Shown in pieces: positions 12,385-27,045 of a stretch of 64,000 nt of DNA. The first letter of the stretch is position 1, and every line of letters starts with the position of its first letter. Under the pieces are notes generated by a model. It was given only the letters and a program-made list of their open reading frames with translations, was not told the origin of the DNA and made no database searches. The DNA comes from an uncultured delta proteobacterium. Its GTDB lineage: Bacteria; Myxococcota; Myxococcia; Myxococcales; Myxococcaceae. The translations under genes were made by a program, and so were the position numbers. The stretch is from assembly GCA_963776345.1 (NCBI GenBank), contig CAVZMH010000019.1, positions 288,001-352,000 of the forward strand. The letters run 5' to 3'.

Positions 12385-13527
12385 ATGCGCTTCGACACCC
12401 TCGCCATCCACGCCGGCCAGGAGCCGGATCCCACCACCGGCGCGATCATGACGCCGGTCTACCTCACCTCGACGTATGTGCAGGCCGGCCCCGGCGAGCA
12501 CAAGGGCTACGAGTACAGCCGGACCAGGAACCCCACCCGCACCGCGCTCGAGGGCTGCCTCGCCGCGCTGGAGGGTGCACGGTTCGGCGCGGCCTTCGCC
12601 TCGGGCTGTGCGGCCACCGACACCCTGATGCACCTGCTCGACAGCGGGGACCACGTCGTCTGCTCGGACGACGTCTACGGCGGCACGTTTCGACTGTTCG
12701 ACAAGGTCTTCAAGCGGCTGGGGCTGACCTTCAGCTTCGTGGACCTCTCCAAGCCGGGCACGCTCGAGGCGGCGCTGACGCCGAAGACCAAGATGGTCTG
12801 GGTGGAGACGCCGACCAACCCGACGCTGAAGCTCGTCGACCTCGCCCGGGTGGGGGAGATCGCCCGCGCCCGGAAGATCGTCTCGGTTTGCGACAACACC
12901 TTCCTCTCGCCGTACTTCCAGCGCCCGCTCGAGTTCGGTCTCGACGTGGTGGTGCACTCCACCACCAAGTACATCAACGGCCACAGCGACACCGTCGGCG
13001 GCTTCATCGCCACCAGCAACGAGGAGCTCGCCCAGCGCATCGCCTTCCTCCAGAACGCGGTGGGCGGGGTGCCCTCGGCGATGGACAGCTTCCTCGTGCT
13101 CCGCGGGGTCAAGACGCTCGGAGTCCGGATGGCGCGGCACGAGCAGAACGCGATGAAGGTCGCCGAGTTCCTGGTGGGCCAGAAGAAGGCCGGGCACGTG
13201 GTCTACCCGGGCCTGGCGAGCCACCCGCAGCACGCGCTCGCCCGGAAGCAGATGAAGGGCTTCGGCGGGATGCTCACCTTCGAGATCCAGGGCGGTCTCC
13301 CGGCGGCCCGGAAGTTCCTCAAGGGGGTCAAGGTGTTCGCCTGCGCCGAGTCGCTCGGCGGGGTGGAGAGCCTCATCGAGCACCCGGCGATCATGACCCA
13401 CGCCTCGGTGCCCCCGGAGACCCGGGCGGCGCTGGGCATCTCCGACGGGTTCATCCGGCTGTCGGTCGGCATCGAGGACGTCCAGGACCTCATCGACGAC
13501 CTCTCCCAGGCGCTCGCCCAGGCCTGA
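12385..13527 (+). CDS. metB: cystathionine gamma-lyase/synthase (PLP trans-sulfuration enzyme)
   Basis: YEYSRTRNPT, DDVYGGT, ETPTNP, DNTF, HSTTKYINGHSD, ESLGGVESL. Confidence 0.9.
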   Translation: MRFDTLAIHAGQEPDPTTGAIMTPVYLTSTYVQAGPGEHKGYEYSRTRNPTRTALEGCLAALEGARFGAAFASGCAATDTLMHLLDSGDHVVCSDDVYGGTFRLFDKVFKRLGLTFSFVDLSKPGTLEAALTPKTKMVWVETPTNPTLKLVDLARVGEIARARKIVSVCDNTFLSPYFQRPLEFGLDVVVHSTTKYINGHSDTVGGFIATSNEELAQRIAFLQNAVGGVPSAMDSFLVLRGVKTLGVRMARHEQNAMKVAEFLVGQKKAGHVVYPGLASHPQHALARKQMKGFGGMLTFEIQGGLPAARKFLKGVKVFACAESLGGVESLIEHPAIMTHASVPPETRAALGISDGFIRLSVGIEDVQDLIDDLSQALAQA

Positions 13528-13563
13528 TTCCGGGCGGTTCCGTCGACCTACCGGGCGGTCGGC

Positions 13564-13593
13564 TTGCACGCGGCCGCCCAGGTGGGCTAGCTC
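13564..13593 (+). promoter_or_regulatory. putative sigma70-type promoter of the his leader
   Basis: TTGCAC at 13564-13569 and a weak (C)TAGCT -10-like element at 13587-13593, about 9 nt before the leader GTG. Confidence 0.4.
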
Positions 13594-13601
13594 TGCAGTC
13601 C

Positions 13602-13688
13602 GTGGTCATCCAGCACCATCACCATGCGCACCATCGGCACGGGCCCGTCGGGTCGGTGCACGCGCATGGCGGTGTGTTCGCTCACTGA
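13602..13688 (+). CDS. hisL: his operon leader peptide (MVIQHHHHAHHRHGPVGSVHAHGGVFAH)
   Basis: 28-aa ORF with 10 His codons ending 96 nt upstream of hisG. Confidence 0.8.
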   Translation: MVIQHHHHAHHRHGPVGSVHAHGGVFAH

Positions 13689-13778
13689 CCCGCCCCCGCT
13701 GACACCGAAGAATCCCGACCGGGCCCTCCAGGCAGCCGCATCCCTGCGGCGTGCCTCGAGGGCCCTTCGCATCTGGAG
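13641..13778 (+). promoter_or_regulatory. his attenuator: alternative RNA structures
   Basis: Long hairpin 13721-13765 (GGGCCCTC-C-AGGCA-GCCGCA/TGCGGC-G-TGCCT-C-GAGGGCCC). Competing pairing 13641-13658 with 13703-13726. CTCCAG (13726-13731) is complementary to CTGGAG (13773-13778), which contains the SD. Confidence 0.65.
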
Positions 13779-13784
13779 AAGCAC

Positions 13785-14642
13785 ATGCTGCGCATCGCAC
13801 TACCGAACAAGGGCAGGCTGGCCGAGGACGTCAGAGGTGTCTTCGCCGACGCGGGCCTGGAGATCCGCGCCCGTGGCGAGCGGGCGCTCACCGCATCGCT
13901 CGGCGGCGAGTTCGAGGCCATCTTCGTCCGGAGCCAGGACATCCCCGAGCTGGTCTCGGACGGCGTGGCCGACGCGGGCGTCACCGGCTGGGACCTGGTC
14001 TGCGAGACCGGCCGGCCGGTCGACGTCCGGCTGGACCTCGAGTTCGGCCGCTGCCGGCTGGTGCTCGCCACCCGGGACGACTCGGGCATCGAGCGGGTGG
14101 AGCAGCTCCCGGCCGGGACGCGGGTGGCCACGGTCTTCCCCCGGCTCGCCAAGTCGTTCTTCGCCGAGAAGGGGCTGGCGGTGGAGGTGGTGCCGGTCTC
14201 CGGCGCGGCGGAGGTCGCGCCTCACCTGGGCATCGCCGACGTCGTCGTCGACCTCACCAGCACCGGGAGCACGCTCCGTACCAACGGTCTCAAGGAGGTC
14301 TGCACGCTGATCGAGTCGAGCGCGCGCCTCATCGCCCGTCCCGGCCTGGCTCCCGAAAAGGCCCGGGCGCTGAGCGAGCTGGAGGACGCGCTCGGCTCGG
14401 TGCTCCGTGCGCGCGGGAAGCGATATCTCATGGCCAACGTGCCGCGCGCCAGGCTGGAGGCGGTGCGGGAGGTGCTCCCGGGCCTGAGCGGGCCGACGGT
14501 CATCGAGCTGTACGGCGGCGGGGCCCTGGTGGCGGTGCACGCGGTGGTCGCCGAGGCCTCGCTCTACCGGACGGTGGCCGCGCTGAAGGCGCTCGGCGGC
14601 GAGGGCATCCTGGTCACCCGCATCGAGAGGCTCCTGCCGTGA
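13785..14642 (+). CDS. hisG: ATP phosphoribosyltransferase (long form)
   Basis: MLRIALPNKGRL, DIPELV..G.ADAGVTGWD, DLTSTGSTL, C-terminal regulatory domain. Confidence 0.95.
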   Translation: MLRIALPNKGRLAEDVRGVFADAGLEIRARGERALTASLGGEFEAIFVRSQDIPELVSDGVADAGVTGWDLVCETGRPVDVRLDLEFGRCRLVLATRDDSGIERVEQLPAGTRVATVFPRLAKSFFAEKGLAVEVVPVSGAAEVAPHLGIADVVVDLTSTGSTLRTNGLKEVCTLIESSARLIARPGLAPEKARALSELEDALGSVLRARGKRYLMANVPRARLEAVREVLPGLSGPTVIELYGGGALVAVHAVVAEASLYRTVAALKALGGEGILVTRIERLLP

Positions 14643-15943
14643 GTCTGCCGGTGCGGTGGACGGGCCCGCTGGCCGCGCTCGGCCCGGACGCGCTCCGGGC
14701 CCTGCTCTCGCGCGGCCAGGGCGACTCCGGCGCGCGGGACCTCCGCGCGCAGGTGGCCGGCCTCATCGCCGAGGTGCGGACCCGGGGGGACGGGGCGCTG
14801 CGCGAGCTCGCCCGGAAATACGACGGGGTCTCGCTCGCCTCGATCGAGGTGCCGCGCGACGCGGTCCGTGCCGCCCTGGACCGGCAGCCGCCTGCGCTCC
14901 GGCGCGCCCTGGAGCGCTCGGCCCGGAACGTCGCCCGCGTGCACTCCGCCTTCCGTCCGCAGGCGAGCCGGATCGAGGTGGAGCCCGGCGTCGTGGTGGA
15001 GCGGCGGCCGGATCCGCTGACCCGGGTCGGGGTCTACGCTCCCGGTGGCCGGGCAGCGTACCCCAGCAGCGTGCTGATGGGCGCGGTCCCGGCGCGGGTG
15101 GCCGGGGTGCGCGAGGTGGTCCTCTGCTCTCCGCCGGGGCCGAACGGGCTCCCCTCCGACCCGGTGCTCGCCGCGGCGGCGGTGGCCGAGGTGGACCGGG
15201 TGTTCGCCCTCGGCGGCGCGGGCGCCATCGCCGCGCTGGCCTACGGCACCGAGTCGGTCCCACCGGTGGACCGCATCGTCGGGCCGGGAAACGCCTGGGT
15301 CGCCGAGGCCAAGCTGCAAGTCTCGTCGCGCGTCCCCATCGACTCGCCGGCGGGTCCGTCCGAGCTCCTGGTCCTGCTCGACGCCACCTCCGACGTCGAG
15401 GCGGTGGCGCGCGAGCTGCTCGCCCAGGCCGAGCACGACCCGGAGGCGGCGGTGGTGGCGGTGGCGCTCGACGAGCGGACCGGGCAGCGGCTGCTCGAGC
15501 GGCTCGGGGCCCTCGTTCCCACCGCGGAGCGGACGGCCATCATCGGTCAGGCGCTGTCCAGCCGGGGGGCGGTGGTGGTGGCGAGCACCCTGGACGAGGC
15601 GGTCGACTTCGCCGAGCGCTGGGCCCCGGAGCACCTCATGCTCGCGGTCCAGGGCGCGCCCGAGCTCTCCCGCCGCATCCGGAACGCGGGCACCGTCTTC
15701 GTCGGCACCTCGAGCTCGGGCGCCTTCGGCGACTACCTGACCGGCGCCAACCACGTGCTGCCCACCGCCGGCGCGGCGCGGGCCTGGTCCGGGCTGTCCA
15801 CGCTGGACTTCGTGCGCTGGACCACCGTCCAGACCGTCTCCCGCGAGGGCGCGGCCTCGCTCGCTCCGGACACCGACGTCTTCGCCACCGCCGAGGGGCT
15901 GCACGCCCACGCCGCCGCCGCGCGGGCCTGGAGGGCGCCATGA
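14639..15943 (+). CDS. hisD: histidinol dehydrogenase
   Basis: GVYAPGGRAAYPSSVLM, VGPGNAWV, AGPSE, QAEHD, APEHL, GDYLTGANHVLPT; GTGA overlap. Confidence 0.95.
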   Translation: MSLPVRWTGPLAALGPDALRALLSRGQGDSGARDLRAQVAGLIAEVRTRGDGALRELARKYDGVSLASIEVPRDAVRAALDRQPPALRRALERSARNVARVHSAFRPQASRIEVEPGVVVERRPDPLTRVGVYAPGGRAAYPSSVLMGAVPARVAGVREVVLCSPPGPNGLPSDPVLAAAAVAEVDRVFALGGAGAIAALAYGTESVPPVDRIVGPGNAWVAEAKLQVSSRVPIDSPAGPSELLVLLDATSDVEAVARELLAQAEHDPEAAVVAVALDERTGQRLLERLGALVPTAERTAIIGQALSSRGAVVVASTLDEAVDFAERWAPEHLMLAVQGAPELSRRIRNAGTVFVGTSSSGAFGDYLTGANHVLPTAGAARAWSGLSTLDFVRWTTVQTVSREGAASLAPDTDVFATAEGLHAHAAAARAWRAP

Positions 15944-16983
15944 GCCCGGCGCGCCCTCGCCCGGTGCTGACCACGCTGCCGCTCTACTCCCCGGACCCGA
16001 GCCCGGTGGAGATCGACCTGAGCGACAACGTGAACATGTGGGGGGTGCCCCCCGCCGCGGAACGGGCGCTCCGGGATCCACTGGCCGCCCACCCGAGCGT
16101 CTATCCGCACTCGGACCCGGTGGAGCTGCGTCAGGCGCTCGCGGCGTACGCGGGGGTGAGCGCGGCGGAGGTCATCACCGGCTGCGGCTCGGACGACGTC
16201 ATCGACGGAGCGCTCCGCGCCTTCGCCGCGCCGGGCGAGAAGGTGGCCTACTCGGCCCCGAGCTTCTCCATGCTGGTGAACTTCACCCGGGTGAACGGCC
16301 TCGAGCCCGCGCCGGTGCCGTTCCGGAACGACGGCGACATCGAGCCGGACGCGCTCCTCGAGCAGCGCGCGGCCATCACCTACATCTGCAGCCCCAACAA
16401 CCCCACCGGGACCGGCGTCTCGCCCGCGGCGATCGAGCGCGTGGTCTCCCGTGCCGAGGGCCTGGTGCTGGTCGATGAGGCGTACGGCGAGTACTCGGGG
16501 CAGACCGCGGTCCCGCTGCTTCCCCGGGCGCCGCAGCTCCTGGTGACCCGGACGCTGTCCAAGGCGTTCGGGCTCGCCGGTCTCCGGGTCGGCTACGGGC
16601 TCGCGGCGCCCGAGGTGGTCCAGGTACTGGAGAAGGTGCGCGGGCCGTACAAGGTGAACGTCCTCGGCGAGCGGGTGGCGCTGGCGGCGCTCCGCGCGGA
16701 CGTGCCGTGGGTCCGCCGCCACGTCGAGGAGGCGCGGGGCCTCCGGGACCGGCTCCGGAGGGAGCTCGAGCGGCTGGGCCTCGCTCCGCTGCCCTCGGCG
16801 GCGAACTTCCTCTGCGTGCCGGTGCCCGACTCCGCCGCGGTGGGCAAGGCGCTGCTCGCCCGCGGCATCAAGGTGCGCGTCCTGCGGTCGCTCCCCGGCA
16901 TCGGCGACGCCTTCCGCGTGGGGGTGGGGCCGTGGGAGCAGATGGAGCGACTGGTCTCCGCCCTGCGCGAGGTGCTCCGGTGA
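15940..16983 (+). CDS. hisC: histidinol-phosphate aminotransferase
   Basis: GSDD, CSPNNPTG, VDEAYGEY, RTLSKAFGLAGLRVGY. Confidence 0.95.
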   Translation: MSPARPRPVLTTLPLYSPDPSPVEIDLSDNVNMWGVPPAAERALRDPLAAHPSVYPHSDPVELRQALAAYAGVSAAEVITGCGSDDVIDGALRAFAAPGEKVAYSAPSFSMLVNFTRVNGLEPAPVPFRNDGDIEPDALLEQRAAITYICSPNNPTGTGVSPAAIERVVSRAEGLVLVDEAYGEYSGQTAVPLLPRAPQLLVTRTLSKAFGLAGLRVGYGLAAPEVVQVLEKVRGPYKVNVLGERVALAALRADVPWVRRHVEEARGLRDRLRRELERLGLAPLPSAANFLCVPVPDSAAVGKALLARGIKVRVLRSLPGIGDAFRVGVGPWEQMERLVSALREVLR

Positions 16984-17573
16984 GGGTGGCGGTCCTCGAC
17001 ACCCGGGTGGGGAACGTCCACTCGCTGCTCAAGGCCCTGGCGGCGGCGGGCGGGGAGCCGCGCCTCGAGTCGCGCCCCGAGGCCTGTCTGGACGCCCCGA
17101 TGCTGGTCCTCCCCGGCGTGGGCGCGTTCCCGGCGGCGAGCGGGCTCCTGGCCGAGGCGCGCGAGGCGGTCCGGAAGCGGCTCCTCGGCGGTGCGCCCTG
17201 CCTCGGCATCTGCCTCGGGATGCAGCTCCTCCTGGACGAGAGCGAGGAGGGCCCCGGGGCCGGGCTGGGCGTCATCCCCGGCCGGGTGGTCCGGCTGGAG
17301 GCGCCCCGGGTCCCTCACATGGGATGGAACCAGGTCGAGGGGGAGGACCCCCTCCTGACCCGTTCCGGGCTGCGGACGGCCTACTACGCCCACAGCTTCG
17401 TCTGCCGCCCGGTGAATCCGGACGTCATCCAGGCAACGACGGAGCACGCGGGCGTCAGCTTTCCGGCGATGATTCGGTCCGGGGGCATGGTGGGCGTGCA
17501 GTTCCACCCCGAGAAGAGCGGCGCACCGGGCCTGGCGTTCCTGGCCGCGGTGCTCGAGGAGGTCGGCACATGA
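16980..17573 (+). CDS. hisH: imidazole glycerol phosphate synthase, glutaminase subunit
   Basis: LPGVGAF, GICLGMQ, PHMGWN, QFHPEKS. Confidence 0.95.
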   Translation: MRVAVLDTRVGNVHSLLKALAAAGGEPRLESRPEACLDAPMLVLPGVGAFPAASGLLAEAREAVRKRLLGGAPCLGICLGMQLLLDESEEGPGAGLGVIPGRVVRLEAPRVPHMGWNQVEGEDPLLTRSGLRTAYYAHSFVCRPVNPDVIQATTEHAGVSFPAMIRSGGMVGVQFHPEKSGAPGLAFLAAVLEEVGT

Positions 17574-18280
17574 GGGTCTTTCCGGCGATCGATCTGCGGG
17601 GCGGGGCCTGCGTCCAGTGGGTCGGTGGCGAACCCGACGCGGAGAAGATCCGCCTCCCCGACCCGGTGGAGGTGGCGCACCGCTGGAAGGCAGCGGGCTT
17701 CCGGGCGCTGCACCTCGTCGACCTCGACGCCGCCCTCGGGACCGGCTCGAACGCCGCGGTGATCGCCGCCATCGTCAAGGACTCGGGCCTGGAGGCCGAG
17801 GTGGGCGGCGGCGTGCGGGACGCCGATGCGATCCAGGGGCTGCTCGACCTGGGCGCCAGCCGGGTCATCGTGGGCACGCGCGCGCTGGAGGACCCCCGCT
17901 GGCTCGAGGAGATGGCCTTCAAGTTCCCCGGGAAGCTGGTGCTCGCCGCCGACACGCGCGAGCGCCAGGTGGTCACCCGGGGCTGGACACGGACCCTCAC
18001 CCAGGACGTGGGGGCGCTGATCGCCGGAGTGGACCCGCTGCCGCTGGCCGCAATTCTGGTGACCGCGGTGCACGTCGAGGGCCGGGAGGGGGGCACGGAC
18101 CTGGCCCTGATGTCCGAGCTGGTGGAGACCACCAGCCATCCCCTCCAGGCCTCCGGGGGCATCGCCTCCATGGACGAGCTGCGCCAGCTGGCCAGCGCCG
18201 GCGTGGCCGGGGCCATCCTGGGCATGGCGCTCTACACCGGGAAGATCGACGCCGCCGCCGCCGCGAAAGAGTTCCCGTGA
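17570..18280 (+). CDS. hisA: ProFAR isomerase
   Basis: FPAIDLRGG, LHLVDLDAA, EVGGGVR, ASGGI. Confidence 0.95.
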   Translation: MRVFPAIDLRGGACVQWVGGEPDAEKIRLPDPVEVAHRWKAAGFRALHLVDLDAALGTGSNAAVIAAIVKDSGLEAEVGGGVRDADAIQGLLDLGASRVIVGTRALEDPRWLEEMAFKFPGKLVLAADTRERQVVTRGWTRTLTQDVGALIAGVDPLPLAAILVTAVHVEGREGGTDLALMSELVETTSHPLQASGGIASMDELRQLASAGVAGAILGMALYTGKIDAAAAAKEFP

Positions 18281-18819
18281 GCGTCCGGCTGGTGCGAGAG
18301 ACGAAGGAGAGCCGGGTCGAGGTGGAGATCGGCCCGGGGACGGATCCGGCCCGCATCGAGACCGGCAAGCCGTTCTTCGACCACATGCTGGCGACGTTCG
18401 GACGCTACGCGGGGTTGAGCCTCGGCGTGAAGGCGCGCGGCGACCTGACCCATCACCTGATGGAGGACGTGGCCATCACCGTGGGGCTCGCCTTCCGGAA
18501 GATGGTCCCCGCGACGGCGGCGCGCTTCGGCGAGCGCACCGTGCCGATGGACGACGCGCTGGTGCAGGCAGCGGTGGACGTGGGCGGGCGGGCCTACTAC
18601 CGGGGCCGGCTCCCCAACGCGCTGTACGAGCACTGGATGCGGAGCTTCGCCGAGAACGCCGGGGCCACCGTGCACCTGCGCGTCATCCGCGGGCGCAACC
18701 GCCACCACGTCGTCGAGTGCGCGTTCAAGGCGCTGGGCCTGGCGCTGCGTGACGCGCTCGCCGAGGGCGGGACGGTGTTCAGCCTCAAGGGGTCGGTGAA
18801 GGTGACGGAGGGCGGCTGA
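18277..18819 (+). CDS. hisB: imidazoleglycerol-phosphate dehydratase
   Basis: RETKES, FFDHML, HHLMED, VPMDDAL, NRHHVVECAFKA. Confidence 0.93.
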   Translation: MSVRLVRETKESRVEVEIGPGTDPARIETGKPFFDHMLATFGRYAGLSLGVKARGDLTHHLMEDVAITVGLAFRKMVPATAARFGERTVPMDDALVQAAVDVGGRAYYRGRLPNALYEHWMRSFAENAGATVHLRVIRGRNRHHVVECAFKALGLALRDALAEGGTVFSLKGSVKVTEGG

Positions 18820-19580
18820 TGCTGGCTCCGCGCATCGTCGCCTGCCTGGACGTGACCGGCGGCCGGGTGGTGAAGGGGACGAAGTTCGTGAACCTCCGCG
18901 ACCAGGGCGACCCGGTGGAGCTCGCCGAGGCCTACGGCCGGGACGGGGCGGACGAGGTGACCTTCCTGGACATCTCGGCGACCCCCGAGCAGCGCGCGCC
19001 GCTCCTGGACGTCGTCCGGCGGACGGCGGAGCGTCTCTTCGTCCCGCTCACCGTGGGCGGTGGGATGCGCTCGGTCGAGGACGTGGAGCGAGCGCTGCGG
19101 GCAGGGGCGGACAAGGTGGCGCTCAACTCCGCGCCGGTGCGCGCCCCCGAGCTGTTCTCGGAGTGCGCCCGGCGCTTCGGGGCGCAGTGCGTGGTGGCGA
19201 GCATCGACGCCCGGCGCTCGGGCGACCGCTGGCAGGTGGTGGTCGGCGGCGGCCGGACCGCGGTGGACCTGGACGCGATCGAGTGGGCGCGCGAGGCCGA
19301 GCGCCGCGGGGCGGGGGAGATCCTCCTGACCAGCATCGATCGCGACGGGGTCCGGACCGGTTACGACCTCGCCCTGACCCGGGCGGTGGCGAGCGCGGTG
19401 CGGGTGCCGGTGGTGGCCTCCGGTGGGGCAGGGGAGGCCGAGCACCTGCGCGCCGTGCTCCAGGACGCGGGCGCCGACGCGGCGCTGGTGGCGGGGATTC
19501 TCCATGACGGCACGACCACGGTCCGGGCGCTGAAGAAGGCGCTCTCGGCGGCCGGGGTTCCGGTGCGCGGCGAGGCGTGA
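18819..19580 (+). CDS. hisF: imidazole glycerol phosphate synthase, cyclase subunit
   Basis: RIVACLDV..GRVVKG, GADEVTFLDI, GEILLTSIDRDG, ASGGAG. Confidence 0.95.
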   Translation: MLAPRIVACLDVTGGRVVKGTKFVNLRDQGDPVELAEAYGRDGADEVTFLDISATPEQRAPLLDVVRRTAERLFVPLTVGGGMRSVEDVERALRAGADKVALNSAPVRAPELFSECARRFGAQCVVASIDARRSGDRWQVVVGGGRTAVDLDAIEWAREAERRGAGEILLTSIDRDGVRTGYDLALTRAVASAVRVPVVASGGAGEAEHLRAVLQDAGADAALVAGILHDGTTTVRALKKALSAAGVPVRGEA

Positions 19581-20351
19581 TGAGCGAGGCACGGGCGTGG
19601 ATGGAGGCGGCGGAGGCGGTGGCCCGGGTGGCGGGGGAGGTCGCGCTGCGCCACTACCACCGCGGGGTCACGGTGGAGACCAAGGGAGACGGGACGCCGG
19701 TCTCGGTGGCGGATCGCGAGGCGGAGGAGGCCGCGCGGCGCTGGCTGGAGAAGCACTGCCCCCAGGACGGAATCCTCGGCGAGGAGCTCGGGACCACGCG
19801 GCCCGAGGCGCACCGGAGGTGGATCCTCGACCCGATCGACGGGACGAAGACCTTCGTCCGGCGGGTGCCGCTCTGGGGGACGCTGGTGGCGCTGGCCGAG
19901 GGCGAGAAGGTCCTCGCCGGCGCGGCGTTCTTCCCGGCGGTGGACGAGCTGGTGGTGGCGGCACAGGGCGGGGGGTGTCTCTGGAACGGGCGTCCGACGC
20001 GGGTGTCGAGCGTGTCGAAGCTGTCCGAGGCGCGTGGTGCTGATGACGGATGCGCGGATGGGGACGCCCGAGCAGGTCCGCGCCCTCGACGGCCTCTGTT
20101 CCCGCGCGGGCCTGGTCCGGACCTGGGGCGATTGCTACGGGTACCTGCTCGTCGCGACAGGTCGGGCGGAGGCGATGGCCGACTCGGTGATGGCGCCGTG
20201 GGACGCGGCCGCGCTCCAGCCGATCATCGAGGAGGCGGGCGGCGCGTTCAGCGACTGGAGCGGACGGCGCACGGCCTTCGGCGGGAACGCGGTGGCGAGC
20301 AATGCCGCGCTCGCGGCCGAGGTGCGCGCGGCGCTCGGAGCGCAGCGATGA
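19580..20351 (+). pseudogene. hisN: histidinol-phosphatase HisN (inositol monophosphatase family) with one frameshift near 20033; possibly a sequencing error
   Basis: N-half (ILGEE, WILDPIDGTK) is in the 19577 frame; C-half (RTWGDCYGY, PWDAAA, IEEAGG) is in the 20034 frame; one extra base in GAG GCG C GTG GTG. Confidence 0.8.
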
Positions 20352-20932
20352 CGCTCGACTTCGACAAGGGTGGAGGCCGGGTCACCGTCGTCACCCGCGA
20401 CGCGCGGACCGGCGCGGTGCTGATGGTGGCCCACGCCGACCGCGAGGCGATCGCCCGGACCGAGGCCACCGGAGAGATGCACTACACCTCGCGGACCCGC
20501 GGGCTGTGGCGGAAGGGCGAGACCAGCGGGAACGTGCAGAAGGTGGTGCGGCTGACGCCGGACTGCGACTCGGACGCGGTGCTCGCCGACGTGGTGCCGG
20601 CGGGGCCGGCCTGTCACGACGGGACGGTCTCCTGCTTCCGCGAGCCCGGCGAGGCGTCGGGCGCGTTCGCCCGCCTCGACGCCGTGGTGCGCGCTCGGTC
20701 CGAGTCGAGCGAGGGCGAGAGCTACACCCGGAAGCTGCTCGGGGACCGGAACCTCCGGCTGAAGAAGCTCGGCGAGGAGATGGCGGAGCTGGTGACCGCC
20801 TGCGCCGACGGCGACCGCGAGCGCGCCGCCGAGGAGGCCGCGGACGTCGTGTACCACCTGACGGTGGCGCTCCGGGCGCTCGGGGTGGGGCTCGGCGAGG
20901 TCGCCGCGGCGCTCGACCGGCGCGCGCGCTGA
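20348..20932 (+). CDS. hisIE: bifunctional phosphoribosyl-AMP cyclohydrolase / phosphoribosyl-ATP pyrophosphatase
   Basis: LWRKGETSG, DCDSD, GPACHDG..SCF, SYT..LL, KKLGEE; ATGA overlap with the hisN stop. Confidence 0.93.
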   Translation: MTLDFDKGGGRVTVVTRDARTGAVLMVAHADREAIARTEATGEMHYTSRTRGLWRKGETSGNVQKVVRLTPDCDSDAVLADVVPAGPACHDGTVSCFREPGEASGAFARLDAVVRARSESSEGESYTRKLLGDRNLRLKKLGEEMAELVTACADGDRERAAEEAADVVYHLTVALRALGVGLGEVAAALDRRAR

Positions 20933-23693: not shown

Positions 23694-23742
23694 GGCGCTC
23701 CCGCTCATAGCACCAGCGGCCGTCAGCGCGCCCTGTCCGGAT

Positions 23743-25029
23743 TCACCCGGCAGCGTGGTCCAGCAGCCAGCAGCGGAGCGCGACGGGGTCGGCCGCCAGC
23801 GGCTCGGAACGTGACGGCCGGGCGAGCAGCTCGGCCAGGGCGGGCGGGACCGAGACCGGATGTCCGACCAGCGGCTCGACGATGCCCTCGAACTTGGCCG
23901 GATGCGCCGTCGCCGCCACGGCCCATTGCCCGCTCGCGCCCTCGGCCCGGAGCTGCTCCAGGACGCGCACCCCGGCGGCGGTGTGCGGACAGAAGACCCG
24001 CCCGTGCCGACGCTCGCCCTCCTGGATGGTCCGGGAGATGTCCGCATCCGCCACCGCCCGCGCCCGCGAGGCGGGTCCGGAGCACCTCCAGGTCGGGGAA
24101 CGTCCAGACCAGCCGCTCGAAGTTGCTCGGGTCCCCGACGTCCATCGCATTCGCCAGCGTGGCCACGCTCGGCCGGCCGCGGTAGACGCCGAGCTCGAAG
24201 AACTCGACCAGCGTCCGGTTGGCGTTCGTCGCCAGGACGATGTCCCCGATCGGCGCGCCCAGCTCGCGCGCCCACACCGCGGCCAGCGCGTTGCCCAGGT
24301 TCCCGGTCGGGACCACGAGGTTGAGCGTCCCCGGTGCTCCAGGCCGCCTGCGCGTGGTACGCGAGCTGCGGCAGGAGCCGGCCGAGGCTGATGCTGTTCG
24401 CCGAGGTGAGCCGGAGCGAGGCGAGCGCCGGGTCGGCGAAGGCGGCCTTGACCATCTGCTGGCAGTCGTCGAACGCGCCCGCCACCCGGAGCGCCGTCAC
24501 GTTGTCACCGAACGTGCCGAGCTGGTGCGCCTGGCGGGGCGAGACCCGGCCCTCGGGGTAGAGCAGCACCACCCGGACGCCGGCCATCCGGTGGAAGGCC
24601 GCGGCGACCGCGCCGCCGGTGTCGCCCGACGTCGCGACCAGCACCGTTCGCGTTCCGGCGCCGGCCGGATGGAGCCGCGCGCACGCAGGCGGCGAGGAAC
24701 CGCGCCCCGAAGTCCTTGAAGGCCGCGGTCGGCCCATGGAACAGCTCGACCACGAAGTCGCCCGGGCCGCGCAGCGGCACCAGCGGGGCAGGGAAGGTGA
24801 AGGCCTCGGCCACCATCGTCGGGAGCTCGGGCGCGAGCCGATCGCCGGCGAAGAACGGCGCGAGCACCGCCACCGCCGCGTCGGCGAGCGCACCCCCGCC
24901 CGGCGCTCGCACCTCGCCGCGGGGGAGCCGCGCCGGGACGAACAGTCCGCCATCCGGCGCCGTGCCCCGGAGCAGCGCGTCCGCCAGCGGCAGGTCCGCC
25001 ACCCCGCCGCGGGTGCTCCCGACGTTCAC
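23743..25029 (-). pseudogene. thrC: threonine synthase with three frameshifts (~24685, ~24330, ~24065); possibly sequencing errors
   Basis: Collinear motifs in four frame segments: APDGGLFVP/ELFHGPTAAFKDFG; ATSGDTG/FDDCQ/SANSISLGRLLPQ; VPTGNLGN/NAMDVGDPSNFER; CPHTA/TAHPAKF. Confidence 0.85.
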
Positions 25030-25952
25030 CCCACCACCCTCGCCGCCGGCGCGGCGACGGGCGAGATCCACACGTCGCAGTCGATGAACGCCGACCGGAA
25101 GGCCTGCTCCATGGCCGCGGCGATCCGCTCCGCCCGGTCCTTGGTGCACCAGGCGAAGACGCTCGGGCCGCCGCCGGAGATGCTCGCCCCGAGCGCGCCC
25201 TCCTCGAGCGCGGCGGCCTTCACCGGCCCGAAGCCGCCGACCAGCGGCGCCCGCAGCGGCTCCACCAGCACGTCGCGCAGCCCGGCGCGGATGCAGTCGA
25301 GGTCGTTGCGGTAGCACCCGGCGAGCACCAGGGCGAGGTTCGCGCTCTGCTCCACGAACTGGGGCAGCTCGAACGGCAGCCTCAGGACGGCCCGCGCGGT
25401 CTTGGTCTCCAGGATCTGGTGGGGATGCACCAGCACGCAGGTCAGGCCATCCGGCACGGGGATCGGGACCAGCCGGTGGTGCGTGGCCAGCGCCAGCCCT
25501 CCGAGCAGCATCGGGCCCACGTTGTCGCCGTGCTCCGCGCCGCTCGCCGCCGACTCGCCGATCATCGCGCACTGGTACAGGACGTCCATCGGCGCCGGCC
25601 GCTCGAGCACCGCGTTCGCCGCGACCAGGGCCGCGACGCACGAGGCCGCCGAGCCCCCCATCCCCGAGCCGAGCGGGATCCCCTTCTCGATCGTCACCTC
25701 GAAGCCGTGGGTGAGCCCCAGCCGTCCGCGGAGCGCGAGCAGCGCCCGGCCCGCGGTGTTCTTCTCGGCGTCCATCGGCAGTCCGACCACCACACCCCCG
25801 ATGGCGGCGATTCGCACCTCGGGTGCATCGATGCGCTGGACGGTCACCCGGTCCGACGGACCGACGATGGCATGGCCGAGGATGTCGAAGCCCACGCCGA
25901 CGTTGCCCACCGAGGCGGGAGCGGCGGCGGTGGCCCGCAGAGAGCGTTCCAT
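25026..25952 (-). CDS. thrB: homoserine kinase
   Basis: APASVGNVGVGFDILG, KGIPLGSGMGGSAAS, HGDNV, ISGGGPS (GHMP kinase). Confidence 0.92.
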   Translation of the reverse strand: MERSLRATAAAPASVGNVGVGFDILGHAIVGPSDRVTVQRIDAPEVRIAAIGGVVVGLPMDAEKNTAGRALLALRGRLGLTHGFEVTIEKGIPLGSGMGGSAASCVAALVAANAVLERPAPMDVLYQCAMIGESAASGAEHGDNVGPMLLGGLALATHHRLVPIPVPDGLTCVLVHPHQILETKTARAVLRLPFELPQFVEQSANLALVLAGCYRNDLDCIRAGLRDVLVEPLRAPLVGGFGPVKAAALEEGALGASISGGGPSVFAWCTKDRAERIAAAMEQAFRSAFIDCDVWISPVAAPAARVVG

Positions 25953-26004
25953 TCCCCGGAGCCTAGTGCGCGAGGGCGTGACGGGTCTGCTACCCTTGGG
26001 AGCA

Positions 26005-27045
26005 ATGCACAGCGAGCAGGCCCTCCGGGACCAGGTGGCGCTCGCCACCGGTCGTCCGCAGGACGGGGCCCCGGTCCTCCAGCTGAAGGGTGACGCGAGC
26101 AACCGCTCCTACCTCCGTGTCGGGCGCTGGCCGGACAGCCACGTGGTGATGGTGATGCCACCCGGTCCCCAGAGGAGCGAGGAGGCCAGCAAGGGCGGGC
26201 CTCCGGACGAGCTCCCCTTCCTCAACGTGCAGCGTTACCTCGAGGGCCTCGGGGTCCGTGTCCCGCGCATCCTCCGGTACGACCCCGCCGTGGCGATGAT
26301 GGTCCTCGAGGACCTCGGCAACGTCACCTTCGAGCGGGCGCTGGAGGGGATCTCGCGCGAGGCGCTCTACGGCCGCGCGGTAGATCTCCTGGCCCGGATG
26401 CGCGCCGCGGCCGAGGCGCGGCCCGACCCGCGCTGCCTCGCCTTCACCCGGGCCTTCGACGAGGAGCTCTACACCTGGGAGCTCCACCACTTTCGCGAGT
26501 ACGGCCTCGAGGCCTGGAGCGGACGGGTGCCCACCACGGCCGAGCGCGCGCAGCTCGAGCGCGCCTTCGCCGGGATCGCCGGACGCCTCGCCGCGGCGTC
26601 TCGGGGCTTCACCCACCGCGACTACCAGAGCCGGAACCTCATGGTGACCGGCGGCGAGCTGGTGGTCATCGACTTCCAGGACGCGCTCCAGGGCCCGTGG
26701 CAGTACGACCTGGTCGCCCTCCTGCGCGACAGCTACGTCGAGCTCGCGCCGGAGCTGGTGGAGGCGATGATCGACCGCTGGCTCGCCGAGTACGCGCGCG
26801 CCTCGGGCCGCACGCTCCAGCGGCCAGAGTTCAGGCGCTTCTTCGATCTGCTCACCGTGCAGCGCAAGCTGAAGGACGCGGCGCGGTTCGAGTTCATCCA
26901 CCGGGTGAAGAAGAATCCGGGTTTCCTCCCCTCGATCCCCGCCTCGCTCCGCTACGCCCGCGCGGCGATGGAGCGGCTGTCCGACGACCCGGACGTGGTC
27001 GCGCTCCGCGAGGTGGCCGTGCGCTACGTCCCCGAGCTGCGCTGA
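26005..27045 (+). CDS. amgK: AmgK-like anomeric MurNAc/GlcNAc kinase (APH family)
   Basis: GDASNRSY, LEDLG, HRDYQSRNLM, IDFQDALQGP..YDLVALLRD; adjacent to a nucleotidyltransferase. Confidence 0.8.
   Translation: MHSEQALRDQVALATGRPQDGAPVLQLKGDASNRSYLRVGRWPDSHVVMVMPPGPQRSEEASKGGPPDELPFLNVQRYLEGLGVRVPRILRYDPAVAMMVLEDLGNVTFERALEGISREALYGRAVDLLARMRAAAEARPDPRCLAFTRAFDEELYTWELHHFREYGLEAWSGRVPTTAERAQLERAFAGIAGRLAAASRGFTHRDYQSRNLMVTGGELVVIDFQDALQGPWQYDLVALLRDSYVELAPELVEAMIDRWLAEYARASGRTLQRPEFRRFFDLLTVQRKLKDAARFEFIHRVKKNPGFLPSIPASLRYARAAMERLSDDPDVVALREVAVRYVPELR

Follow-up and report, generated by a model that had tools for sequence, protein, structure and literature searches.

A 2010 comparative survey by Lopatovskaya and colleagues reportedly predicted attenuation in delta-proteobacteria. 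Histidine attenuators are described for gamma-proteobacteria and Firmicutes in PMC9413887 and PMC4833913, the accessible portions of which name neither Myxococcus nor Gemmatimonas. According to the accessible portion of PMC9413887, the enterobacterial hisL element (RF00514) has a His-codon leader before hisG, rival protector, antiterminator and terminator folds, and predicted read-through upon ribosome stalling, all of them seen or predicted for the element analyzed here. Candidate His leaders of the Bacillus cereus group, Peptostreptococcaceae and Erysipelotrichales, outlined in the same portion, have a predicted terminator and antiterminator outside RF00514, as here; they belong to a different phylum and are likened by description, not by sequence. 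For the same gene and family, Naville and Gautheret (2010; PMC2965389, Table S8, row 9021) list a 'His_peptide_leader' with a premature terminator 36 nt upstream of hisG in Myxococcus xanthus DK1622, and the M. xanthus AM003 leader (L052) can be aligned with the one studied here. In the accessible portions of PMC2965389 the DK1622 entry is a table prediction only, Myxococcus not being found in a search of the main text. Finally, the mycobacterial polycysteine short ORFs, such as Ms5788A (bioRxiv 10.1101/834739, accessible portion), are leaderless, as is likely here, and are likewise rich in codons for the end product and found in a GC-rich host. Our literature search, whose coverage left out most subscription journals, retrieved no study devoted to the element in Myxococcota or Gemmatimonadota.

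The element lies in a 64,000-nucleotide stretch of DNA from an uncultured member of Myxococcaceae, referred to below as the window (Table 1). The operon behind the leader is a complete his operon with hisG first, although the hisA, hisB and hisN matches score below their curated cut-offs in the profile search. Elsewhere in the window, by-eye reading of the ORF list gives threonine-synthesis-like frames at 23700-26102 on the minus strand, comprising a homoserine kinase-like frame (25026-26102) and a threonine synthase-like gene apparently split over several frames. Among the best 80 of 155 hisG relatives, the closest named ones (92-93% identity) come from uncultured Myxococcaceae or delta-proteobacterial bins, followed at 61-73% by Myxococcus, Archangium, Corallococcus and many Gemmatimonadota. 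The long-form hisG together with the leader is common to Myxococcaceae and Gemmatimonadota at 61-73% protein identity, whereas other families of the same order have hisG matches of only 34-43%; this distribution would suggest transfer of the operon together with its attenuator.

Table 1. Features of the hisG leader region and its flanks, in window positions
Feature	Position	Strand	Remarks
Cystathionine gamma-synthase-like gene	end at 13527		upstream flank of the element
-35-like hexamer TTGCAC	13564..13569	+	TTG 17-18 nt ahead of TA in 27/30 genus-type leaders (upper bound)
-10-like element TAGCTC	13588..13593	+	only TA conserved; 14 nt before leader GTG
His-rich leader ORF, likely leaderless	13602..13688	+	GTG 13602 to TGA 13686-13688; 28 codons, 10 His
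Control block of His codons	13614..13640	+	codons 5-8, 10, 11, 13; overlaps segment 1 (13622-13629)
Protector hairpin 1:2	13622..13669	+	13622-13629 with 13662-13669; 13642-13646 with 13650-13654
Segment 2, 5' strand of predicted antiterminator	13641..13658	+	duplex calculation, leader alignment
Segment 3, 3' strand of predicted antiterminator	13703..13726	+	13703-13708, 13714-13718, 13720-13726
Long hairpin 3:4	13721..13765	+	-38.4 kcal/mol; 5/19 pairs changed on both sides; homologous to relatives' terminator hairpin
Eroded U-tract TTCGCATC	13766..13773	+	3 T of 8; aligns with TTCTTCGTTT, TTTGTCGTTT, TTTTTTCGTTT of relatives
SD-like GGAG of hisG	13775..13778	+	pairing with 13726-13731 not supported
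his operon	13785..20932	+	hisG (13785-14642), hisD, hisC, hisH, hisA, hisB, hisF, hisN-like, hisIE

The His-rich leader and its likely start

The preliminary description of the region proposed looking for His-rich upstream ORFs before hisG in relatives, and these were found. Twelve other genomes of the genus were examined; the leader is present in all 11 that have a hisG match, and the twelfth is 68% complete. We considered 182 loci in total and recognised the hisG start by script in 157; the metagenome pattern scan gave 43 loci, a mix of true leaders and chance matches. The 157 loci hold 124 distinct His leaders: 30 of the genus type, 9 of a sister genus, 28 of the Myxococcus type and 57 others, the last being mostly Gemmatimonadota by record title, with one sister-genus leader (L166) misfiled among them. 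His leaders are thus distributed over the window's genus, Myxococcaceae more widely and Gemmatimonadota. Nine loci gave no leader call, seven of them cut short upstream; the other two (L012 and L054) represent one Myxococcaceae genome, G031, whose hisG has no His leader in the 340 nt upstream.

The originally reported coordinates and His counts of the 28-codon ORF are confirmed, with seven of the ten His codons before and three after segment 2. At the genome His frequency of 2.0%, the binomial probability of at least 10 His in 28 codons is 8e-11. However, the genome, which is GC-rich, has many His-rich shadow frames (144 overlapping 12-codon stretches with at least six His), and therefore the case for the leader rests on position and conservation rather than on the His count. 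One other such frame in the window's genome, G000:C19:9525, is a shadow frame within another gene. Among 38 close leaders (L168 being left out of this count), His occupies codons 6, 8, 10 and 11 in all 38 and codon 13 in 37, compared with codon 20 in 26 and codon 28 in 12. Judging from this alignment, the His codons do not act symmetrically: the invariant ones are those of the first block. The conserved His-rich ORF with its invariant first block supports the earlier proposal of a His-sensing leader of the his operon. The leader peptide has no Pfam match at E up to 10 and no NCBIfam match.

Two observations concern histidine decoding. CAT makes up 44% of leader His codons (117/265 in genus-type leaders) and 10% of those in the genome's genes, a bias that fits slower decoding and also CATG pairing in the protector stem. 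With default settings, ARAGORN called 54 tRNAs in the window's genome, with neither tRNA-His nor tRNA-Asn among them, probably reflecting an assembly gap.

Upstream of the leader, the two promoter-like elements are separated by 18 nt. A strict sigma-70 scan of the plus strand called no promoter, the window's hexamers being too weak for it. The start-picking rule favoured promoter presence, so that the counts of promoter spacing are upper bounds and the tight spacing is their informative part: TTG followed after 16-19 nt by TA, itself 11-16 nt before the start codon, occurs in 27/30 genus-type, 9/9 sister-genus, 26/28 Myxococcus-type and 52/57 other leaders. TA lies 13 or 14 nt before GTG in 27/30 genus-type leaders, and wherever it was found in genus-type and sister-genus leaders its position is always one of these two. 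No SD-like 4-mer precedes the leader in any of the 30 genus-type leaders, or in any of the 39 when the sister genus is included. Since both the promoter spacing and the absence of an SD fit, the leader transcript is likely leaderless, with a predicted transcription start at or beside GTG 13602, much as the preliminary description had suggested from the missing SD and the promoter element directly ahead. Genome-wide, promoter-like spacing ahead of gene starts does not peak sharply (of 3956 starts, 18 have it at 13-14 nt, 17 at 15-16 nt and 16 at 17-18 nt); consequently, that count gives no help on the leaderless question. The M. xanthus Cappable-seq supplements (PMC8844925) gave no hit for hisG.

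Rival pairings and ribosome position

The leader region folds better than shuffled sequences (z -3.4; 3/200 shuffles as good). The complementarity between segments 2 and 3 noted earlier is confirmed: their duplex reaches -34.3 kcal/mol, whereas shuffled sequences average -22.4 and 3/2000 of them do as well. In the form expected as a stalled intermediate, the antiterminator pairs 13641-13647 with 13720-13726, 13648-13652 with 13714-13718, and 13653-13658 with 13703-13708, and the last six bases of segment 3 double as the base of the long hairpin. Across 30 leaders the antiterminator is almost invariant, with 94% of cells paired, while the two protector helices have 97% and 99% of cells paired, one pair being double-changed in three related sequences. 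In the models, the protector is predicted to hide segment 2 when the RNA is free of ribosomes. Covariation, another check proposed at the outset, gave a divided answer. The protector plus long hairpin fold has some within the genus (17 double-change cells versus 9 in shuffles, with 0/500 reaching it, although related sequences can exceed this shuffle control). In contrast, the antiterminator, a nearly invariant helix in the 30 genus-type leaders, has none above shuffles.

To relate these folds to translation, a ribosome footprint was masked for each codon, extending 15 nt upstream and 8 nt downstream of the A-site base, and the gain from closing the last six hairpin pairs was computed. In the window this gain is -4.9 kcal/mol with the ribosome on the His block, -14.6 past the block and -8.0 with no ribosome. 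The sample comprised all 39 close leaders together with a hand-picked 12/28 Myxococcus-type and 17/57 other leaders, and in these 68, which include kin that are not independent, the closing force is at least 2 kcal/mol weaker on the block than past it in 67 (29/30 genus-type, 9/9 sister-genus, 12/12 Myxococcus-type, 17/17 other); in 66 it also falls short of the value for ribosome-free RNA by at least 1 kcal/mol. L126 has the opposite energy trend. Five other leaders with mis-called hairpins (L051, L067, L094, L096 and L107) were left out of the polarity and anti-SD analyses.

The computed polarity reverses the one first proposed, in which a ribosome on the His codons masks segment 2 and the long hairpin forms as the ON state. 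A ribosome on the first block leaves segment 2 free and weakens the hairpin base, and if the hairpin were the ON state, starvation would turn the operon off. In leaders with an obvious terminator the computed polarity is that of classical attenuation, and the modelled window has the same sign. Many relatives switch at equilibrium (median base-closing probability 0.00 with the ribosome at the block's last His, 1.00 two codons on and 0.52 in naked RNA), whereas in full-length window RNA the base is closed with P >=0.97 wherever the ribosome is placed, whether 8 or 12 nt are masked downstream. The switch in the window must therefore act during RNA synthesis, through folding kinetics. Thus, the earlier statement that leader pairing excludes the hairpin base stands in so far as the two compete over six base pairs during RNA synthesis, but fails at equilibrium. 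Our models accordingly favour the antiterminator when a ribosome sits on the control codons, as a kinetic rather than an equilibrium switch in the window.

Hairpin, tail and mode of action

The long hairpin of the preliminary description is present with its reported ends. Its companion claim, that no U-tract follows, was overstated: TTCGCATC aligns with the U-tract of relatives, although just two U adjoin the hairpin. Genus-type hairpins, about 45 nt at -36 kcal/mol versus -18 in relatives, are about twice as long and stable. The tails differ as well. Myxococcus-type leaders combine a short stem with 6-7 T of 8 in 28/28 cases, sister-genus tails have 5 T of 8 in 9/9, and other leaders have at least 6 T of 8 in 49 of the 54 with a called hairpin (there was no call for L087, L095 and L166). 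Genus-type tails range from 2 to 6 T of 8, with three or fewer in 16/30, four in 2/30 and at least five in 12/30, two of the hairpins having been re-set by motif. Hairpin 3' arms and tails align across the leader groups, and by this alignment the window's hairpin and tail are the homologue of a canonical terminator. When the tail and SD region are left out of tree building, U-poor tails come out interspersed with U-rich ones, with 7 changes, at least 3 of them forced by well-supported branches, given a short alignment and two long branches.

A strict terminator scan of the plus strand did not call the window hairpin. In a survey of the window's genome that used rough gene calls and counted hairpins not shown to be terminators, strong hairpins were followed by at least 5 T of 8 in 2/68 cases at convergent gene ends and in 8/169 at tandem ends; at least 3 T followed 18/68 of the convergent ones. 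Since a U-poor tail is thus the local norm, the weak tail alone is no evidence for translational output. TCGT is present in several of the genome's hairpin tails, as in the his tails. A rho gene is present on C19, and a further rho-like match (G000:C1:117767-118861, minus strand, 469 bits) falls below the cut-off. According to the accessible portion of PMC3993855, the E. coli polymerase requires at least three adjacent U, while the mycobacterial polymerase tolerates imperfect U-tracts, aided by NusG, and reads through hairpins without a U-tract even with NusA and NusG. Measured against that portion of the study, the window tail would lie near or below the U limit, and a leaky stop or help from Rho is plausible.

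Taken together, we consider it likely that the element controls the his operon by ribosome-mediated transcription attenuation of the classical kind, with a long hairpin, an eroded U-tract and a likely leaderless transcript. The His-rich ORF, the rival pairings, their conservation and the terminator homology are read directly from sequence and the polarity is computed; leaderless loading, ribosome stalling and termination are steps that we infer. Transcription would start at or beside the leader GTG, where a ribosome would load. Under a shortage of charged tRNA-His, this ribosome would halt at codons 5-11 and cover segment 1, leaving segment 2 free to capture segment 3 as it emerges; the hairpin base would be kept open and RNA polymerase would read into hisG. 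With plentiful histidine, either translation would proceed across segment 2 or 1:2 would form; the hairpin would then be paired down to its base, and RNA polymerase would stop near 13773. Because only 3 of 8 tail positions are U, this stop would probably be leaky or aided by NusG, NusA or Rho. Several findings weigh against this reading: the two adjacent U, the 16/30 genus-type tails with three T or fewer, the closed base at equilibrium, the antiterminator without covariation and the L126 trend.

A more far-reaching version, which is tentative and somewhat doubtful, holds that the genus attenuator has repeatedly lost its U-tract while its hairpin doubled, and that it now acts without a canonical intrinsic terminator, through Rho or NusG at a hairpin pause or through gating of hisG translation. 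If true, the 30 natural variants with 2 to 6 U would form a ready series on attenuation in GC-rich bacteria poor in U-tract terminators.

It is also conceivable, though unlikely, that with the same polarity the closed hairpin mainly serves as a Rho pause site, or sterically hinders hisG initiation, instead of acting as an intrinsic terminator. The eroded tail, a hairpin about twice as long and stable as that of relatives and the presence of rho are all in keeping with it. The linker from stop codon to hairpin is rich in C (C 0.51, G 0.20), and most of it is unpaired in the 1:2 plus 3:4 fold; however, the sister genus has an equally C-rich linker together with a fair U-tract. As for a steric block, 19 nt separate the end of the hairpin from the ATG, and the cost of opening -25..+13 is 26.0 versus 14.2 kcal/mol, yet for footprints from -15 or -20 the states are only about 1 kcal/mol apart, and the hairpin-to-ATG gap varies from 18 to 35 nt across U-poor leaders. 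Pairing of the leader 5' end with the SD varies with the cut point chosen for the fold and lacks conservation (3/30 in the best tenth of background).

Decay of the attenuator is a further, quite unlikely, alternative: leader and hairpin would persist with little histidine control in this sub-lineage, the hairpin mainly stabilising the RNA. Repeated U loss on the tree, a base closed in every equilibrium state of the window and the existence of a family member (G031) with hisG and no His leader agree with such decay. Against it, the His codons, the frame, the promoter spacing and both rival helices are near-invariant whether a leader is U-poor or U-rich, in contrast to the freely varying loop, spacer and SD region.

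The translational mechanism of the preliminary description had the hairpin as the ON state hiding an anti-SD; with plentiful histidine, the leader would open the hairpin and CTCCAG (13726-13731) would block the hisG SD. The complementarity of CTCCAG to CTGGAG (13773-13778) is real, and in the window this 6-nt complement ranks in the best 6% against 664 background ribosome-binding regions; in 13/30 leaders, however, the corresponding duplex is weaker than more than 90% of that background. Although CTCCAG occurs in 27/30 genus-type leaders as part of the stem, a CTGGAG or TTGGAG partner is found in only 6/30, and L147, whose leader is near-identical to the window's, has CCGGAG with no compensating change. 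The proposed pairing has a probability of 0.000 for each of the 28 ribosome positions as well as for naked RNA, and at most 0.0002 with segment 2 masked, the fold proposed as a check, or with the His block masked; the complete OFF fold, in which the leader is paired and CTCCAG occupies the SD, is less stable than the free ensemble by 8-11.5 kcal/mol.

Two other anti-SD segments were considered and rejected. The hairpin 3' arm with the tail would close the site in the starved state, which is the wrong direction; it is absent from the window (percentile 0.99 of background; genus median 0.28-0.35), and 3/21 unique pairs rank in the best 5%. The leader 5' end pairs with the SD in the window with a probability of 0.64 if the fold ends 6 nt into hisG and 0.06 at 25 nt, and ranks in the best tenth of background in the same few leaders noted above. 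Hence, among the three candidate segments there is no conserved helix that hides the SD at plentiful histidine and is freed by a stalled ribosome. As a separate observation, leader invasion can free the 3' arm for pairing with the ribosome-binding region of hisG in L005, L011, L112, L126 and L134; this is strong in some relatives (L005, L011, L126) and modest overall, and in L005 and L126 the pairing extends over about 11-12 bp of sequences that differ between them, with no function evident.

Although the hairpin would be favoured by a ribosome stalled at His codon 13, 20 or 22, and many relatives, the window excepted, pair the freed 3' arm with the ribosome-binding region (matched versus swapped p=0.003, kin not independent), the translational mechanism is highly improbable given the near-zero CTCCAG:SD probability, its energetic cost and the rarity of the SD partner, together with a hairpin that is closed in ribosome-free window RNA (0.999), leaving no default OFF state, that is opened by stalls on the invariant block in 67/68 leaders and whose homologue is a canonical terminator in 28/28 Myxococcus-type leaders, and with forced opening of the ribosome-binding site costing nearly the same in both window states (9.0 versus 7.9 kcal/mol, about 1 kcal/mol apart; such costs were computed for all 30 genus-type and 6/9 sister-genus leaders).

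Relation to described attenuators

Compared with enterobacterial hisL, the window's element has no Rfam or Pfam match, is likely leaderless, has its stop codon downstream of segment 2 and carries a weak U-tract. Rfam, including the RF00514 His_leader model, gave no match at E up to 5 in window positions 12800-14200, and none at the gathering score in five related loci. The difference from the mycobacterial polycysteine ORFs lies in the output. As set out in the accessible portion of bioRxiv 10.1101/834739, in translational attenuators of the Ms5788A type it is the control codons themselves that pair with the SD region, and a transcriptional reporter proved insensitive, whereas in the window's element no conserved SD-sequestering helix was found. 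On the strength of the modelling, the claim of a translational His attenuator did not survive testing and is unlikely to hold.

The mechanism favoured here, transcription attenuation by a stalled ribosome, is the textbook one and, as far as the accessible portions of PMC2965389 go, was already predicted for M. xanthus in its 2010 supplement. A family of His-leader attenuators that has neither an Rfam nor a Pfam model is now extended to another lineage, and the M. xanthus homologue with its canonical terminator makes the element testable in that species. M. xanthus has a short hairpin and 6 U of 8, while in the window's genus the hairpin measures 45 nt, the antiterminator is displaced by one hexamer and the tail is eroded. 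It is this long hairpin, and a U-tract that comes and goes inside one genus, that are particular to the element described here and that bear on how transcription ends in GC-rich bacteria.
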